DNA from: Klebsiella phage vB_KpM_FBKp34
Sequence record: MW394390.1
Reading direction: 5' to 3' (one strand)
DNA length: 64,000 nt
Made by a program: the position numbers and the translations under genes. Below are positions 45,699 to 51,732 of the stretch, piece by piece (positions within the stretch are counted from its first letter, which is position 1; each line of letters starts with the position of its first letter). The notes under the pieces are model-generated. The model searched no databases. It was not told the DNA's origin and was given only the letters and a program-made list of their open reading frames with translations.

Positions 45699-46985
45699 AT
45701 GTCTGAGAGTAAAATGCTAATCATGTTTGATTCAAAGAATAATAACAATAAATTCTATGAAGCAACCTTAGATGACGTTGGAAATATTGCAGTTCGTTTT
45801 GGTCGGGTAGGTGGCGGGGTTCAAACTACCTCCTACTCTGGTGGTAAAAAGAAGTTTGACAGTCTTGTTGCATCTAAAATCAAGAAAGGTTATAAAGAAG
45901 CACAACTAGAAGCTGTCTCTGGTGAAACTGGGTTGACTCAAAAAGTTAACGTAGTAGACATTGCACTTAAGCAAATTGATTGTAAAGACGACACAAGTCG
46001 TAATCTTATTCAAGCAATTGCTAAAGCAAACATTCATAATATCACCAGTTCTACCAACATTAAATATGATGAAAAAGATGGTCTGTTTAAGTCTCCTTTA
46101 GGAGTTGTAAAGAAAGCTGCTGTGGAAGAAGCAATGATCCATCTTGGTAATATTGAATCCCTTTTGGATGAATATGAAAAGAGTGGTAAAGGTGAAGATG
46201 AGATCTTAACTTTAAATGATTCTTATTTTGTTCTTATTCCTAATAAAGTTGCAACTACACGTGATAAACGTCACTTGTTGTTTAGTCAGAAAAAGATTGA
46301 TGAACAACGTGAAATTTGTAAAGCACTTCTGGAAACCTTAGACCTTATTGAAGAACTTAAGAAGAATCAGGAAGATAAACCTAAAGAAGAAGTTGAAGTA
46401 GAAAAAATCTTTAATTTTGGTATCTCTCATGTTGAAGATTCTGCTACAATTGATCGTATTGTTAAGTACTACAATGAAAGTAAAAATGCCCAACACGGCG
46501 GTCGCATCATGGGTTCTAAGGTTAAAAATATCTATAAAATTAATCTTGGAAATCAACAAGCACCATTTGATAAAGCCATTACTAAGTATGGAAATGTTCA
46601 TGAACTGTGGCATGGAACACGTGTAGCTAATTTGTTATCTATTTTCTGTAAAGGTTTGATGATGCCTAAGCAATCACCAGGGCAGAAAGCTGGTGCAATG
46701 TTTGCAGACGGTATATATTTCGCTAACCAAAGTTCTAAGAGCATCAACTATTGTGACGGCGGGTACTGGACAGGCGGTTCTGGTAGTGGTAAGGTATACA
46801 TGTTCCTAGCTTCAGTGGCTGTCGGAAATGCTTATACACCTAGAGGTCCAACGAGTCAATTGCCTCCGAAAGGTTATCATTCATATTGGGCGAAGGCTGG
46901 TTACTCTGGAGTCAGAAATGATGAAATCATTGTTTTTGATCTGAGTCAGATTCGTTTAGATTACTTACTTGAAATTGAATATTAA
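45699..46985 (+). CDS. WGR domain + poly(ADP-ribose) polymerase catalytic domain protein
   Basis: N-terminal KFYEATLDD...FGRVGGGVQ...KIKKGY (WGR); C-terminal ELWHGTR, GIYFANQ, NDEIIVFDLSQIRLDYLLEI = PARP H-Y-E triad. Confidence 0.85.
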   Translation: MSESKMLIMFDSKNNNNKFYEATLDDVGNIAVRFGRVGGGVQTTSYSGGKKKFDSLVASKIKKGYKEAQLEAVSGETGLTQKVNVVDIALKQIDCKDDTSRNLIQAIAKANIHNITSSTNIKYDEKDGLFKSPLGVVKKAAVEEAMIHLGNIESLLDEYEKSGKGEDEILTLNDSYFVLIPNKVATTRDKRHLLFSQKKIDEQREICKALLETLDLIEELKKNQEDKPKEEVEVEKIFNFGISHVEDSATIDRIVKYYNESKNAQHGGRIMGSKVKNIYKINLGNQQAPFDKAITKYGNVHELWHGTRVANLLSIFCKGLMMPKQSPGQKAGAMFADGIYFANQSSKSINYCDGGYWTGGSGSGKVYMFLASVAVGNAYTPRGPTSQLPPKGYHSYWAKAGYSGVRNDEIIVFDLSQIRLDYLLEIEY

Positions 46986-47482: not shown

Positions 47483-47890
47483 ATGATTATTGAAAAAATG
47501 AAACAAGACCAACTTGCTTTTCGTAAATCCGGTGATAAAGAAAAGGCTGCTACTCTAACCTTTCTTTTAGGAAAATTGTCACAAGATAAAAATTCAACTG
47601 ACGAAGATGCTATTGCCTTAATTAAGTCTACTGTAAAATCTACTCGTGCAAGTCTTGAAGGTCATGAAGCACAACTGAAACAGTATGAAGAAGAAATTGC
47701 TTTTATGGAAAGTTATCTTCCTGCACAGTTGAGTGAAGAAGAGATTCGTGATTTCTTGGATACTGCGGTACAGAATGGTGATAAAATCACTATGAGTTTC
47801 ATGGGTAAAATTAACATGGTTGCTAAAGCTGCTGGTAAAACAGTAGACAACCAATTAGCAAAAACTATTCTTCAAGCTTATCTGATTTAA
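47483..47890 (+). CDS. GatB/YqeY domain protein
   Basis: ESYLPAQLSEEEIRDFL ... KAAGKTVDNQLAKTIL pattern. Confidence 0.7.
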   Translation: MIIEKMKQDQLAFRKSGDKEKAATLTFLLGKLSQDKNSTDEDAIALIKSTVKSTRASLEGHEAQLKQYEEEIAFMESYLPAQLSEEEIRDFLDTAVQNGDKITMSFMGKINMVAKAAGKTVDNQLAKTILQAYLI

Positions 47891-47937
47891 ATCAAGATCT
47901 GAAATCAGAATAAAAGCTAAAATAAGGATCTACTTTT

Positions 47938-47965
47938 AAGCCAGTTAACGCTGGCTTCTTATTTT
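47938..47965 (+). terminator. rho-independent terminator AAGCCAG-TTAAC-GCTGGCTT + CTTATTTT
   Basis: immediately upstream of nrdD RBS. Confidence 0.55.
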
Positions 47966-47974
47966 GGAGGAATA

Positions 47975-50900
47975 ATGCACCACCCATACAAAATTATAAA
48001 ACGTGATGGACGCACTGAACAATTTGATGAACGTAAAGTTTACAATGCAGTATATCAAGCAGCACTAGCTAACTCTTCATTATCAATCACAGCAGAACAT
48101 GTTGCTGATCAAATCACAGAACACGTTATTAAAAATCTCAAAGAGAATAAGTCAGTCTCAAATGTTCAAAAAATGATTGAAGATTTCCTTATGTCTAATC
48201 CAAAGACATATGATATAGCCAGAACCTATATTGAGTACAGACATGATAGAGATAAAATTCGTGAAGGAAATGGGAAACTTTATAATGACATCTCTGGCTT
48301 CTTAGAACAAACAGCAGAAGAATTTACTCGTGAGAACGCTAATAAACCCAGCAATGTTGTAAACACGCACAGAGACCTCTTAGCAGGGATTTTAAGTAAG
48401 CATGTAGCATTAACTCAAATACTACCTAAAAACCTCTCAGAATGGCATACAAGCGGTTTTGGGCATATTCATGACCTAGATTATCTAATCAGTCCTCTTA
48501 CAAATTGTCTAGGAAGAGAAACAGCTTTTATCACAAAAGAAGGAACAAAAACGTTTTTCGATTTTAATAGTGGAGATGATGTCCTAGCCTTAACCCATAC
48601 AGGTACTTTTAAGAAGGCAAAAGTTTACAATTATGGGTACGGACTTTTAAATGAAATTACATTAAAACGTGGACGTCTAAGAAAAACAATACGTGCAACA
48701 GCTAATCACAGGTGGTTATTAGAGGATGGCACAGTCACTACTAACCTTAAGGTAGGTGATAAACTACTGAAAACTCCTACAACATATAATAGAGATTGGG
48801 CCACATTGAGCAACTCTGAAAAAAGAGCTTGGTGTTTTGGTTTTGGATATGCAGATGGTGTGAGTAGGATTACACAATGGGGTAATTTTTTTACTATACC
48901 CCTTATTGGTAAAAAACAGGATTATCAAGAATTATTTGAAGATGCTGGATTTAGAGTTACTAAAACAAAGTTGTACTCTGTAGTACATTTAGGTAAATTA
49001 GAAAAATTTTTACCTACAACATTAACCCATACAGAAAATGAGATTTTTTGTTTTGTTGATGGGCTTATAGCAGCAGACGGACATAAAAAATATAGACCTA
49101 AGCTAAATAAAAATATTCCAGCGTCGATTCAGATGACTGGAGAAGAAATAAATGACTTTATACAAACTTGGTTTGAACCTGCTGGGTATTATTTGGGGGC
49201 AACGTTAGATCTTTCCTGTCAAGAAACAAATTATGGTAAAAGAAACGGAAAAACTATAGAATATAAATTAAACCCAGAACAGAACCATATGGCATGGACT
49301 GTCACTGAAATTATCAACACAGGCAAAGAAGAGGAGGTGTGGTGTTTGGAGGTGGAAGAAGATGCAAGTTTTATTCTTTCTAATGGAGTAGTCACAGGTA
49401 ACTGTTGTCTTGTTAACTATCAAGATATGTTAGAAAATGGTTTCCATATTGGAAATGCTTTCATTGAAAAACCTAAATCAATTGGTGTTGCTACTACAGT
49501 GTTGACACAAATTATTCAGGCGGTGGCCTCTAGTCAATATGGTGGACAAACTTGCGCACATATTGATACAGGATTAAAACAGTATGTAGAGTCAACATAC
49601 TATAGGAATGAAGGTTTATTTAATCAATATAATATCTCAGAATATAAAGTAGATGCTTTTAGGAAAACAGAACAAGATGTCTATGATGCAATGCAAACCC
49701 TTATTTATCAGGTTAATACATTAATGAGTGTAAATGGTCAGTCTCCATTCATCACTATTAGTCTTGGTTTAGATACTTCAGAATTTGGTAGAATGATCAC
49801 TCGTAACTATCTAAAAATTCATAAAGAAGGTCTGGGTAAAGATAAAGTAACACCTGTGTTCCCGAAAGTGATTTTCTTTCTTGAAGAAGGTGTAAACATG
49901 CACCCTGATGATCCTAATTATGACCTGAAACAACTAGCAATGGAGTGTTGTGCAGAAAGAATTTATCCAGATTTTATTTCAGTTCCTAGAAATAAACTAG
50001 TTACAAAATCTTCAAAAGGTCATGTTACTAGCATGGGCTGTCGTAGCTTCCTTTCTTATTTTGCTACAGAACAAGGTGAGAAATATGATGGCAGATTTAA
50101 TCTTGGGGTAGTGTCTTTAAACCTACCGATGATTGCCAAGGATTGTACCACCAACGGAAAACTTTTTCTTGAAGAACTTTATAAGCATATGCAAACAGCA
50201 TATGAAGCACATATGCTGAGGATTAATCGCCTTAAGGGAACTAAAGCAAAACAAAATCCTGTGATGTTCGTTGAAGGAGCATTAGCTAGACTCGATCCTG
50301 AAGAAACTATTGACAAACTTTTTTACAAAGGTTATGCTTCAGCAAGTTTTGGTTATGTAGGGCTTTACGAATGTGTAAAAATCCTTTATCCAGAGGTAAC
50401 TTTAGACGAGTACAAGGATTTTGGACAAAAAATTCTTAAATTTATGTCTAATATGGCAGAAGATTATAAAAAGAAAACAGGTGTAGGTTTTGGTCTTTAT
50501 GGAACCCCAGCAGAATCACTTTGCTATAAGTTTGCTAATAAAATTAATGAGAAATTCCCAGGAACTATCGAGAAAGATTACTTGACCAACTCTTTCCATG
50601 TTCCAGTAGACCAAGAAGTAGACCCTTTTACTAAATGGAATGTTGAATCAGGGTTTGACTTTATCAGTTCAGGTGGTAATATAGGTTATGTTGAGACACC
50701 AAATCTGAAACACAACATGCAAGGACTGGAAGCATTAATCAACTATGGATATGAAAATATTCATTACTTTGGGATTAATCAACCTGTTGATAAATGTCTG
50801 AAGTGTGGCTTTCATGGAGAGTTTAAAGCAACAGCAGAAGGCTTTGAATGTCCTGATTGTGGCAATACTGAGGAAGGAACGATCAACGTGATTCGGAGAG

Positions 50901-50992
50901 TCTCAGGTTACTTATCTGCACCTAACAGCAGACCTTTTAATAAGGGTAAGATGCAGGAAGTTGTTCAACGTGTAAAACATACAAATTTATGA
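47975..50992 (+). CDS. nrdD: anaerobic ribonucleoside-triphosphate reductase, intein-containing
   Basis: ATP-cone-like N-term, HIHDLD, C-terminal CLKCG...CPDCG zinc ribbon and glycyl-radical RVSGYL; 1005 aa because of 299-aa insertion. Confidence 0.9.
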   Translation: MHHPYKIIKRDGRTEQFDERKVYNAVYQAALANSSLSITAEHVADQITEHVIKNLKENKSVSNVQKMIEDFLMSNPKTYDIARTYIEYRHDRDKIREGNGKLYNDISGFLEQTAEEFTRENANKPSNVVNTHRDLLAGILSKHVALTQILPKNLSEWHTSGFGHIHDLDYLISPLTNCLGRETAFITKEGTKTFFDFNSGDDVLALTHTGTFKKAKVYNYGYGLLNEITLKRGRLRKTIRATANHRWLLEDGTVTTNLKVGDKLLKTPTTYNRDWATLSNSEKRAWCFGFGYADGVSRITQWGNFFTIPLIGKKQDYQELFEDAGFRVTKTKLYSVVHLGKLEKFLPTTLTHTENEIFCFVDGLIAADGHKKYRPKLNKNIPASIQMTGEEINDFIQTWFEPAGYYLGATLDLSCQETNYGKRNGKTIEYKLNPEQNHMAWTVTEIINTGKEEEVWCLEVEEDASFILSNGVVTGNCCLVNYQDMLENGFHIGNAFIEKPKSIGVATTVLTQIIQAVASSQYGGQTCAHIDTGLKQYVESTYYRNEGLFNQYNISEYKVDAFRKTEQDVYDAMQTLIYQVNTLMSVNGQSPFITISLGLDTSEFGRMITRNYLKIHKEGLGKDKVTPVFPKVIFFLEEGVNMHPDDPNYDLKQLAMECCAERIYPDFISVPRNKLVTKSSKGHVTSMGCRSFLSYFATEQGEKYDGRFNLGVVSLNLPMIAKDCTTNGKLFLEELYKHMQTAYEAHMLRINRLKGTKAKQNPVMFVEGALARLDPEETIDKLFYKGYASASFGYVGLYECVKILYPEVTLDEYKDFGQKILKFMSNMAEDYKKKTGVGFGLYGTPAESLCYKFANKINEKFPGTIEKDYLTNSFHVPVDQEVDPFTKWNVESGFDFISSGGNIGYVETPNLKHNMQGLEALINYGYENIHYFGINQPVDKCLKCGFHGEFKATAEGFECPDCGNTEEGTINVIRRVSGYLSAPNSRPFNKGKMQEVVQRVKHTNL
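48506..49402 (+). mobile_element. intein with LAGLIDADG homing endonuclease domain inside nrdD
   Basis: starts CLGRETAFITKEG after extein ...PLTN, ends ...VVTGN followed by +1 Cys (NCCLVNY); internal GFGYADG and VDGLIAADG motifs. Confidence 0.75.
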
Positions 50993-51001
50993 GGATAAAT
51001 T

Positions 51002-51253
51002 ATGACAACAGTAAGTAAATTGCCAGAAGTTGGTACTAAGGAGTGGGGTAACTTAGTGGAGAATGAGTTTGCTATAGTTGAAACCTCTAAAAGACCTGTA
51101 TCATCTTATGAAGAAATTATGACAGCGCTTGCTTGGTACTTTGGGGACGATGGGTATTATGCAAGTGCAGAAAGTATCTATGAGATTATTAATCAAGAAC
51201 ATGATCCTATTGAGACTATTGCAAAGGCATTGGATGACTATCGGGAGCAGTAA
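51002..51253 (+). CDS. hypothetical protein
   Basis: 83-aa ORF between nrdD and nrdG. Confidence 0.45.
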   Translation: MTTVSKLPEVGTKEWGNLVENEFAIVETSKRPVSSYEEIMTALAWYFGDDGYYASAESIYEIINQEHDPIETIAKALDDYREQ

Positions 51254-51732
51254 TGAACTATTCAGGTTACATTTTTGGTGACTTGGTTAATGGAGAGGGA
51301 GCCAGGTGCTCCCTTTTTGTTTCTGGGTGTTCACAAGGTTGTGAAGGATGCTTTAACAAAGAGACATGGAACTATAACCATGGTCAACCTTTTACTAAAG
51401 ATTTTCAAGACAAACTGTTGAAAGATTTGAAGAAAACTTTCATTAATGGGTTAAGCATCTTGGGAGGAAACCCTTTAGAAAGAAAAAATTTTGACACAGT
51501 ATTAAAGCTTTGCTATTCTGTTAAACAAGAGATGCCAGAGAAGACAATCTGGTTATGGTGTGGGCAGACAATGCAAGAGATAAAAAATAACTTGCTTTAT
51601 GCTCAAATACTGGATATAGTGGATGTCATCATAGATGGGAAGTTTGTGAAAGACCTTCCTACAAAGAAACCTTTTAGGGGATCTGATAACCAAGTTTTAT
51701 GGAGAAAAGTTAATGGTAAGTGGGAAAGCTGA
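51253..51732 (+). CDS. nrdG: anaerobic RNR activating protein (radical SAM)
   Basis: GxGxRCSLFVSGCSQGCEGC cluster. Confidence 0.85.
   Translation: MNYSGYIFGDLVNGEGARCSLFVSGCSQGCEGCFNKETWNYNHGQPFTKDFQDKLLKDLKKTFINGLSILGGNPLERKNFDTVLKLCYSVKQEMPEKTIWLWCGQTMQEIKNNLLYAQILDIVDVIIDGKFVKDLPTKKPFRGSDNQVLWRKVNGKWES

Follow-up and report, generated by a model that had tools for sequence, protein, structure and literature searches.

In the present study, we analysed a 64,000-nucleotide stretch of the genome of Klebsiella phage vB_KpM_FBKp34 (record MW394390.1), hereafter referred to as the window, in which nrdD, the gene for the large subunit of an anaerobic (class III) ribonucleotide reductase (RNR), is interrupted in frame by 299 codons. 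The insert is very probably a full-length intein that consists of a HINT splicing domain and a LAGLIDADG homing endonuclease nested within it. An intein at this position had been proposed in an earlier reading of the letters and open reading frames (ORFs), made before any database search (the sequence-only reading). The features of the locus are as follows, in window coordinates:

47975..50992, plus strand: nrdD precursor ORF, 1005 aa, 114.2 kDa, stop codon counted in
47975..48505, plus strand: N-extein, aa 1-177, with the ATP-cone at approximately nt 47990-48256; ends in ...HIHDLDYLISPLTN
48506..49402, plus strand: intein, 299 aa, 34.0 kDa, Cys1 to Asn299 (897 nt, precursor residues 178-476)
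48506..48535, plus strand: block A, CLGRETAFIT, with the Cys1 nucleophile
48698..48715, plus strand: block B core, TANHRW, with Thr65 (B:7), His68 (B:10) and Trp70 (B:12)
48803..49255, plus strand: predicted LAGLIDADG homing-endonuclease domain, approximately intein aa 100-250, an alpha-beta-beta-alpha-beta-beta unit present twice
48839..48859, plus strand: LAGLIDADG motif 1, GFGYADG, intein 112-118, putative catalytic Asp117
49055..49081, plus strand: LAGLIDADG motif 2, VDGLIAADG, intein 184-192, putative catalytic Asp191
49334..49378, plus strand: block F, EVWCLEVEEDASFIL, with Cys280 at F:4 and Ala287 at F:13
49382..49402, plus strand: block G, NGVVTGN, with Thr297 (G:5), Gly298 (G:6) and Asn299 (G:7), matched by TIGR01443
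49403..50989, plus strand: C-extein, aa 477-1005, beginning with Cys477-Cys478 and carrying the glycyl-radical domain and zinc ribbon
51253..51732, plus strand: nrdG, the activating enzyme, intact (Fer4_12, E=1.1e-45, plus Radical_SAM)

The product of nrdD is identical to NCBI QQV91744.1, which is annotated as 'ribonucleotide reductase of class III (anaerobic), large subunit' and in which the intein is not named. The ATP-cone, the NRDD barrel (E=2e-162, in two stretches) and Gly_radical were all matched in Pfam, and the NCBIfam model PRK09263 (E=7.5e-240) was likewise matched in two stretches, the second of which resumes at approximately residue 475; with both models the insert falls in the gap between the stretches. 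The T4 NrdD structure (1H78) matched with E=7e-165, its residues 5-79 being aligned to residues 104-178 of the nrdD product. The barrel, the C-terminal glycyl-radical domain, the zinc ribbon, the active-site Cys and the partner NrdG expected of an NrdD are all found. The order nrdD-nrdG is the same in the nearest sequenced phage, Klebsiella phage KP13-16, the record of which files it under Stephanstirmvirinae, and the intactness of nrdG supports a working NrdDG system.

The boundaries of the insert were located by an exact coordinate and codon comparison with KP13-16, which is 96% identical to the window across 65% of a 20-kb window sample and carries an intein-less nrdD. The two nrdD genes are 89% identical in two pieces that cover 69% of the query, and their coding sequences measure 2121 nt in KP13-16 vs 3018 nt in the window, a difference of exactly 897 nt; the window exteins total 2121 nt, and the 897-nt block is the sole length difference. 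At the protein level, ...PLSN-CCLVNY... in KP13-16 corresponds to ...PLTN, 299 aa and CCLVNY... in the window, and the intein-less target across the junction (marked here and below by an arrow) is ...TATCTAATCAGCCCTCTCAGCAAC↓TGTTGTCTCGTTAATTACCAAGAC... in KP13-16. The T4 NrdD structure also runs gap-free over this point, T77-N78-C79-C80 being equivalent to T176-N177 and C477-C478 of the precursor. The insertion is exact relative to the intein-free allele. The coordinates 48506-49402 and the flanks that had been given for a 299-aa insert in a 1005-aa NrdD are confirmed by this alignment with an intein-less homologue, which yielded exact extein junctions, and the Cys start after PLTN and the ...VVTGN end followed by Cys-Cys read as described there: the insert itself is CLGRETAF...SNGVVTGN, preceded by ...HIHDLDYLISPLTN and followed by CCLVNYQD. 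The length of approximately 600 aa that had been expected for an uninterrupted enzyme has to be revised, because NrdD here comprises 706 aa with its ATP-cone, and approximately 600 aa is the size of T4 NrdD, which is without the cone. The anticipated spliced product of approximately 80 kDa agrees with the computed mass of 80.2 kDa.

Both junctions encode Asn-Cys, namely AAT↓TGT at 48500-48511 and AAC↓TGT at 49397-49408, which form a 6-bp imperfect direct repeat. Owing to this repeat, the boundaries could be shifted by one or two residues if judged by the DNA alone, and the register from Cys1 to Asn299 is the sole one that fits intein chemistry. The GC content and the GC content at third codon positions of the intein equal those of the exteins.

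Regarding the splicing domain, intein blocks A, B, F and G are all present, with Cys1, Thr65-x-x-His68, Asn299 and Cys477 in place. The comparison with intein profiles that the sequence-only reading had suggested was positive: NCBIfam TIGR01443 (intein_Cterm) scored 24.5 bits against a cut-off of 15.6, and Pfam PF14890 (Intein_splicing) matched with E=1.2e-8 and 35.3 bits, just under its curated cut-off of 35.8. In HMMER alignments with the Ssp DnaB mini-intein (1MI8), TANHRW aligns to TANHRF of block B, and VWCLEV...ASF aligns to VFDLTV...HNF of block F. The penultimate intein residue is Gly298, not His; the lack of the usual His had been pointed out in the sequence-only reading, and this Gly is the consensus of the family described below.

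An AlphaFold2 model of the intein, built on 37 family sequences, had a mean predicted local distance difference test score of 96.3 and a predicted template modelling score of 0.92. The best Foldseek matches of this model were the inteins PI-SceI (E=2.9e-8), PI-PfuI (E=2.9e-7) and PI-TkoII, and lower-ranked matches comprised mini-inteins as well as the free-standing LAGLIDADG enzymes I-DmoI, E-DreI and I-Tsp061I. The HINT fold is further seen in matches to the NpuDnaB, Ssp DnaB, MchDnaB-1, Msm DnaB-1 and gp41-1 inteins. Within the model, helices 103-117 and 177-191 end in ...YADG and ...AADG, respectively. A profile of 42 family sequences matched I-DmoI (E=0.008) and PI-PfuI (E=0.03) with both LAGLIDADG helices aligned, and in the alignment to I-DmoI, motif 1 stands opposite LGLIIGDG and motif 2 opposite FIKGLYVAEG. 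Ten of the 42 relatives also match Pfam LAGLIDADG_3 (PF14528; best E 8e-5). In motif 1, G112 and G118 are invariant in two alignments, and D117 is invariant in one and conserved to at least 90% in the other; in motif 2, G186 is invariant, and A190, D191 and G192 are each conserved to at least 90%. Asp117, Asp191 and Lys167 are conserved across the intein family. As judged from the family profile and the structure model, the central domain is a LAGLIDADG endonuclease with the two-motif fold, and the GFGYADG and VDGLIAADG blocks that had been picked out by eye are borne out as its motifs.

The position of the intein is that of the active site. It lies between Asn177 (T4 NrdD Asn78) and Cys477, which is equivalent to T4 Cys79, E. 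coli Cys175 and T. maritima Cys125. All RNRs share the Cys equivalent to T4 Cys79, which has a role in the reductive half-reaction, and the mutation of T4 NrdD Asn78 abolishes activity (PMC4493059). Since the active-site strand is split at the equivalents of the catalytically essential Asn78 and Cys79, the 114-kDa precursor should be enzymatically dead and exact splicing should be needed. We propose that the precursor self-splices to give the 80-kDa NrdD (80.2 kDa) and a free 34-kDa intein (34.0 kDa), that the free intein would cut intein-less nrdD alleles at ...AAC↓TGTTGT... during mixed infections, and that double-strand-break repair would then copy the element into the cut allele. Both splicing and DNA cleavage by this protein are predicted from its sequence and model.

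An exhaustive search of 1.84 billion cluster representatives returned 900 relatives of the intein at E ≤ 1e-3, 333 at E ≤ 1e-10 and 116 at E ≤ 1e-30, as against 3 relatives from a word-indexed protein search. Conservation was counted in the best 149 of the 900 relatives, in which the junctions almost always read ...N↓C(F/L)xx(D/E)TxF ... G(I/V)xTGN↓C:

Position 1: Cys 144/149, Pro 5/149
B:7: Thr 146/149
B:10: His 149/149
B:12: Trp 149/149
F:4: Cys 149/149
F:13: His 91, Lys 20, Gln 12, Asn 7, Arg 7, Glu 6, Ala 4
G:5: Thr 146/149
G:6: Gly 142/149
G:7: Asn 148/149
+1: Cys 149/149

The residue at -1 is Asn in nearly all 149 members, regardless of the host protein. NrdD is the host in 59 of the 136 full-length members, and class II B12-dependent reductases also serve as hosts, as do isocitrate lyase, AAA_24 and AAA ATPases, a DNA methylase, a DegT-type aminotransferase and DnaB. 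The family is large and mostly metagenomic, and it occupies Asn↓Cys sites of class III and class II reductases and of other enzymes. Its sequences indicate that the penultimate Gly is the consensus and not a defect. At F:13, the phage homologues in Morganella phage MP1 and Vibrio phages PVo5 and V6Aob have His, and the window copy has Ala287.

The five members with Pro at position 1 (P0062, P0072, P0101, P0114 and P0116) form one clade in a neighbour-joining, unbootstrapped tree, nested among Cys1 members in class II reductases. This clade keeps the F:4 Cys, the B:12 Trp and Cys+1; its residues at B:7 are Thr, Thr, Cys, Cys and Ser, and G:5 is Ser in two members. All three family members without Thr at B:7 fall within it. 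Judged by sequence, the Pro1 clade is a class 3 pattern that arose within a Cys1 family. Since Thr B:7 is lost only in this clade, Cys1 and Thr B:7 are suggested to work together where they are kept. The invariant F:4 Cys in turn suggests a scaffold that is able to work without Cys1, as the Pro1 clade indicates.

Selection and mobility were assessed with two close relatives, L007 (a 144-kb contig) and L008 (a 9.7-kb metagenomic scaffold). Between the window and L007, the intein has a nonsynonymous divergence (dN) of 0.028, a synonymous divergence (dS) of 0.304 and a dN/dS of 0.09; taken singly, the HINT and endonuclease parts have ratios of 0.13 and 0.067, respectively. The exteins gave a dN/dS of 0.12 against KP13-16 and, in the analysis that yielded 0.09 for the intein, of 0.01-0.13. 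Purifying selection acts on both intein domains with the same strength as on the exteins.

The window and L008 inteins differ by 2 mismatches in 897 nt (99.8% identical, dS 0), and the exteins are only 93.2% (N-extein) and 87.3% (C-extein) identical; the C-extein of L008 is 98.6% identical to that of intein-less KP13-16. At sites that differ between the window and KP13-16, agreement of L008 with the window is confined to gene nt 519-1452 and a further point at 1551, such that the window-like span consists of the intein with flanks of no more than 29 nt upstream and 119 nt downstream; 3' of this span, L008 matches KP13-16 almost everywhere. The element and short flanking tracts have recently moved between related phage backgrounds. 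The mosaic is the pattern expected of endonuclease-initiated double-strand-break repair with short co-conversion tracts, and it is consistent with a homing footprint. Ordinary homologous recombination could in principle produce the same mosaic, although so tight a bracketing of the intein is not what it would be expected to give. In the comparison of the window with KP13-16 alone, sliding identity was 0.88-0.97 at the junction, with 8 differences in the nearest 39 nt and no clear co-conversion signal in the window copy; the signal emerged only when L008 was added. Two patches of the C-extein, at approximately 49592-49681 (52%) and 50372-50461 (63%), diverge from KP13-16 in a gene that is otherwise approximately 90% identical, and they represent mosaic recombination within nrdD that is unrelated to the intein junction.

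Homologous inteins occupy the same site in Morganella phage MP1 (Straboviridae; 48% identical), Vibrio phage PVo5 (Demerecviridae; 52%), Vibrio phage V6Aob (43%) and two faecal phage contigs. A tblastn search of the intein over 50,697 phage records gave six matches and no others. The scatter of same-site inteins over phages of differing recorded taxa, one phage being unclassified in its record, is consistent with mobility.

Two readings that would deny the insert an active intein were weighed. T4 nrdD carries a group I intron that encodes I-TevII (PMC2988022), as the sequence-only reading had noted in calling the present insert a different class of selfish element, and large insertions are common in RNRs; the insert might accordingly be a group I intron with an in-frame ORF or a lineage-specific NrdD domain. 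Either identity is hardly credible in view of the intein blocks, the combined HINT and LAGLIDADG fold and the occurrence of the same element at Asn↓Cys sites of unrelated enzymes. An Rfam scan of 47500-51500 at E ≤ 1 found no group I intron and only a chance-level small RNA match, and the frame is open throughout, by which an intron is ruled out and the protein-level assignment upheld. A genuine NrdD domain is ruled out by the KP13-16, T4 and E. coli-type NrdD proteins, which are contiguous over the junction; the insert is not found in these intein-free homologues. A decaying element, which no longer splices or cuts DNA in a phage that relies on the NrdD of its host, is a more substantial concern, and several observations weigh against an active, complete intein. 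The PF14890 score falls 0.5 bit short of the curated cut-off. No Pfam LAGLIDADG match was found at E ≤ 1 for the window copy, nor an NCBIfam match, so that the LAGLIDADG call on this copy draws on the family profile and the structure model. Ala287 replaces the block F His of 61% of the relatives and of the phage homologues in MP1, PVo5 and V6Aob, and together with Gly298 this leaves the C-terminal Asn without both of its usual His helpers. The support for splicing and DNA cleavage is comparative, for this protein and the whole family alike. Enterobacterial hosts carry their own nrdDG genes, so the loss of the phage NrdD might be tolerated. Nevertheless, F:13 is variable across the family, Gly is the consensus at G:6, and Ala287 is retained in L007 and L008. 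The dN/dS of the intein (0.09, and 0.067 in the endonuclease part) lies within the range of the exteins, the putative catalytic Asp117 and Asp191 are present, nrdG is intact, and a near-identical intein in a different backbone points to recent transfer. Decay is thus very unlikely, and it was set aside on the variability of F:13, the Gly consensus at G:6 and dN/dS.

The remaining alternatives concern how an active intein would splice. Cys1, Thr65 and His68 (TxxH) are those of a class 1 intein, of which two usual features differ in that F:4 is Cys280 rather than Asp and G:6 is Gly298 rather than His; both deviations are seen in inteins known to splice (PMC5050341, PMC3196547), and a phage intein with a penultimate Gly splices well, its Gly-to-His mutant being worse (PMC5050341). 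Trp70 (B:12), Cys280 (F:4) and Thr297 (G:5) also form the Trp-Cys-Thr triplet that defines class 3, in which the F:4 Cys, and not residue 1, attacks the N-terminal junction (PMC2807308). Class 3 inteins are without an N-terminal nucleophile and carry Ser or Thr at +1, Bvi IcmO being the sole published exception (PMC5222942), whereas Cys1 is present here and +1 is Cys. Only three triplet-bearing inteins with Ser1 or Cys1 were noted by Tori et al. (PMC2807308). Foldseek identity to class 3 structures (24%) and to class 1 structures (20-26%) does not discriminate between the two. Considering the conserved residues, splicing probably starts as in class 1, with Cys1 making the first thioester. Aided by Thr65 and His68, Cys1 would form this thioester, the acyl group would be transferred to Cys477, Asn299 would cyclise without a penultimate His, and an S-to-N shift would restore the Asn-Cys peptide bond. 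Cys280, with Trp70 and Thr297, may assist the reaction or may itself carry a thioester, be it as an intermediate station or as an alternative one; that the window copy, too, passes through a block F branched thioester is possible, short of likely.

A class 3 route or a three-cysteine relay, in which Cys280, by attacking the N-terminal junction itself or by accepting the acyl group of Cys1, would form a block F branched thioester before the acyl group moves on to Cys477, is a genuine but lesser possibility; in its pure class 3 version, Cys1 would not be needed. The triplet (Trp 149/149, Cys 149/149, Thr 146/149) is better conserved than Cys1 (144/149), the five Pro1 cluster representatives, which begin with Pro like the class 3 prototype MP-Be DnaB, have diversified on a scaffold that appears to work without it, and Bvi IcmO indicates that class 3 chemistry is compatible with Cys+1 (PMC5222942). 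On the other hand, Cys1 (97%) and Thr B:7 (98%) persist in relatives of as little as approximately 30% identity, and both are relaxed solely, and jointly, in the Pro1 clade, from which it is argued that they are used. According to a later paper (PMC3196547), Tori and Perler assigned inteins with both Cys1 and the F:4 Cys to class 1 and regarded them as polyphyletic. Splicing of a true class 3 intein was disturbed when Cys was introduced as its first residue. Class 3 splicing was also not obtained when the Trp-Cys-Thr triplet was grafted onto a class 1 intein (PMC7664689). The division between class 1 and class 3 behaviour that favours a start at Cys1 rests on conservation and one Pro1 clade, which represents a single evolutionary event in an unbootstrapped tree. 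We consider it rather doubtful, yet worth stating, that the family is a living intermediate between classes 1 and 3, with a path from Cys1 through the F:4 Cys to Cys+1 or with redundant nucleophiles, the Pro1 clade being the completed switch, and possibly with disulfide-gated splicing. The four thiols at the splice site (Cys1, Cys280, Cys477 and Cys478) are the basis of this last, speculative point, and the class 3 Msm DnaB-1 intein has a redox switch that operates through its F:4 Cys (PMC6195587). If disulfide gating holds, the oxygen-sensitive NrdD would mature only under reducing, anoxic conditions.

With an initial thioester at Cys1 as the preferred reading, the element is of a known kind, that of PI-SceI (yeast VMA1) and PI-PfuI (Pyrococcus RNR), in which the same HINT domain is interrupted by a two-motif LAGLIDADG endonuclease. 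These two inteins are the best structural matches and share Cys1, TxxH, the terminal Asn and Cys+1 with the window intein, and PI-PfuI likewise resides in a ribonucleotide reductase. Sequence identity to them is only 10-11%, and the window intein is smaller, with 299 aa vs the 405-454-residue chains of the two structures. It also differs in having Cys for Asp at F:4, Trp at B:12, Thr at G:5 and Gly for the penultimate His, and in its host, a class III (NrdD) reductase of an enterobacterial phage. With the class 3 inteins MP-Be DnaB, Msm DnaB-1 and Bvi IcmO, which were compared by features, it shares the triplet and the phage association; it carries a LAGLIDADG endonuclease, as do most class 3 inteins (PMC7891396). 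Bvi IcmO shares Cys+1 with the window intein, and MP-Be DnaB shares Pro1 with the sub-clade of the family. Unlike class 3 inteins, the window intein keeps Cys1 and Thr B:7 and has Cys+1 and a penultimate Gly, and its family has reductases as hosts, in contrast to the helicase and ATPase P-loops occupied by class 3 inteins.

Among phage elements, the intein in gp51, the recombination directionality factor of mycobacteriophage Bethlehem, also has a penultimate Gly and splices efficiently (PMC5050341); it belongs to another host protein and family, and the Trp-Cys-Thr triplet is not in evidence. The T4 nrdD (sunY) intron with I-TevII is likewise a selfish element that brings its own homing endonuclease and resides in the same essential gene, again in a virulent enterobacterial phage, and its mobility is also accompanied by the co-conversion of flanks (PMC2988022). 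It is nevertheless an unrelated element, with splicing at the RNA level and a GIY-YIG rather than a LAGLIDADG endonuclease. Inteins in phage RNR genes including nrdD are already on record, putative NrdD inteins having been reported in Clostridium phage c-st, D-1873 and Lactococcus phage 949 (PMC3653736). These three are not among the six tblastn matches and are presumably different intein alleles.

What goes beyond a routine intein is the hybrid class 1/class 3 signature that a large family keeps, the Pro1 clade nested in it and, in Klebsiella phages, a clean mosaic consistent with homing. Being compact (299 aa) and having a predicted natural target in KP13-16, this LAGLIDADG intein suits the study of homing in virulent Klebsiella phages. 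The family comprises at least 116 clusters (E ≤ 1e-30) with Cys1 and the class 3 triplet and one clade without Cys1, and in this natural series mutagenesis could directly test the proposal that class 3 arose in phages from a class 1 ancestor. In addition, the intein, whose host enzyme functions only in the absence of oxygen, is a candidate for redox-conditional splicing. Should none of the homing, class-transition and redox readings hold, it is an ordinary, well-behaved intein. The GenBank label of an NrdD large subunit alone hides both a mobile element and a post-translational maturation step; intein-bearing nrdD is similarly annotated as plain NrdD in Morganella phage MP1 and Vibrio phage V6Aob and as a hypothetical protein in PVo5.

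Further observations concern the family and the neighbouring genes. The non-reductase host proteins are P0024, P0040, P0105, P0107, P0071, P0069 and P0046, all with Asn↓Cys sites; the insertion in isocitrate lyase lies within a ...YN↓CSPSFNW motif, and the methylase is an N6/N4 DNA methylase. Several metagenomic reductases and other host proteins, namely P0001, P0012, P0013, P0015, P0017 and P0071, show signs of harbouring a second or third intein. After its first intein, P0001 appears to restart with GCFVSGTLVEMGDGS; P0015 and P0071 have an additional LAGLIDADG_3/Intein_splicing region, and P0012 and P0013 have three matched stretches each.

Three genes 5' of nrdD, a 428-aa protein (45699-46985, plus strand) carries WGR (E=2.9e-7), PARP regulatory (E=2.7e-8) and PARP catalytic (E=9.7e-25) domains in Pfam. 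It is kept in L007 and L008, and in KP13-16 (L001 1573-2862), a size-matched ORF annotated as hypothetical stands at its position, the likeness being one of size and position only. Directly 5' of nrdD lies a gene for a 135-aa YqeY-like (GatB/YqeY-type) protein (47483-47890, plus strand; Pfam E=1.5e-13), which is also present in L007 and L008. The small-gene content between nrdD and nrdG varies among these phages: the spacer holds one ORF of 83 aa in the window (50993-51252), two ORFs of 96 and 51 aa in KP13-16 (L001 6107-6565) and L008 (4519-4977), and three ORFs of 123, 64 and 51 aa in L007 (4516-5260).

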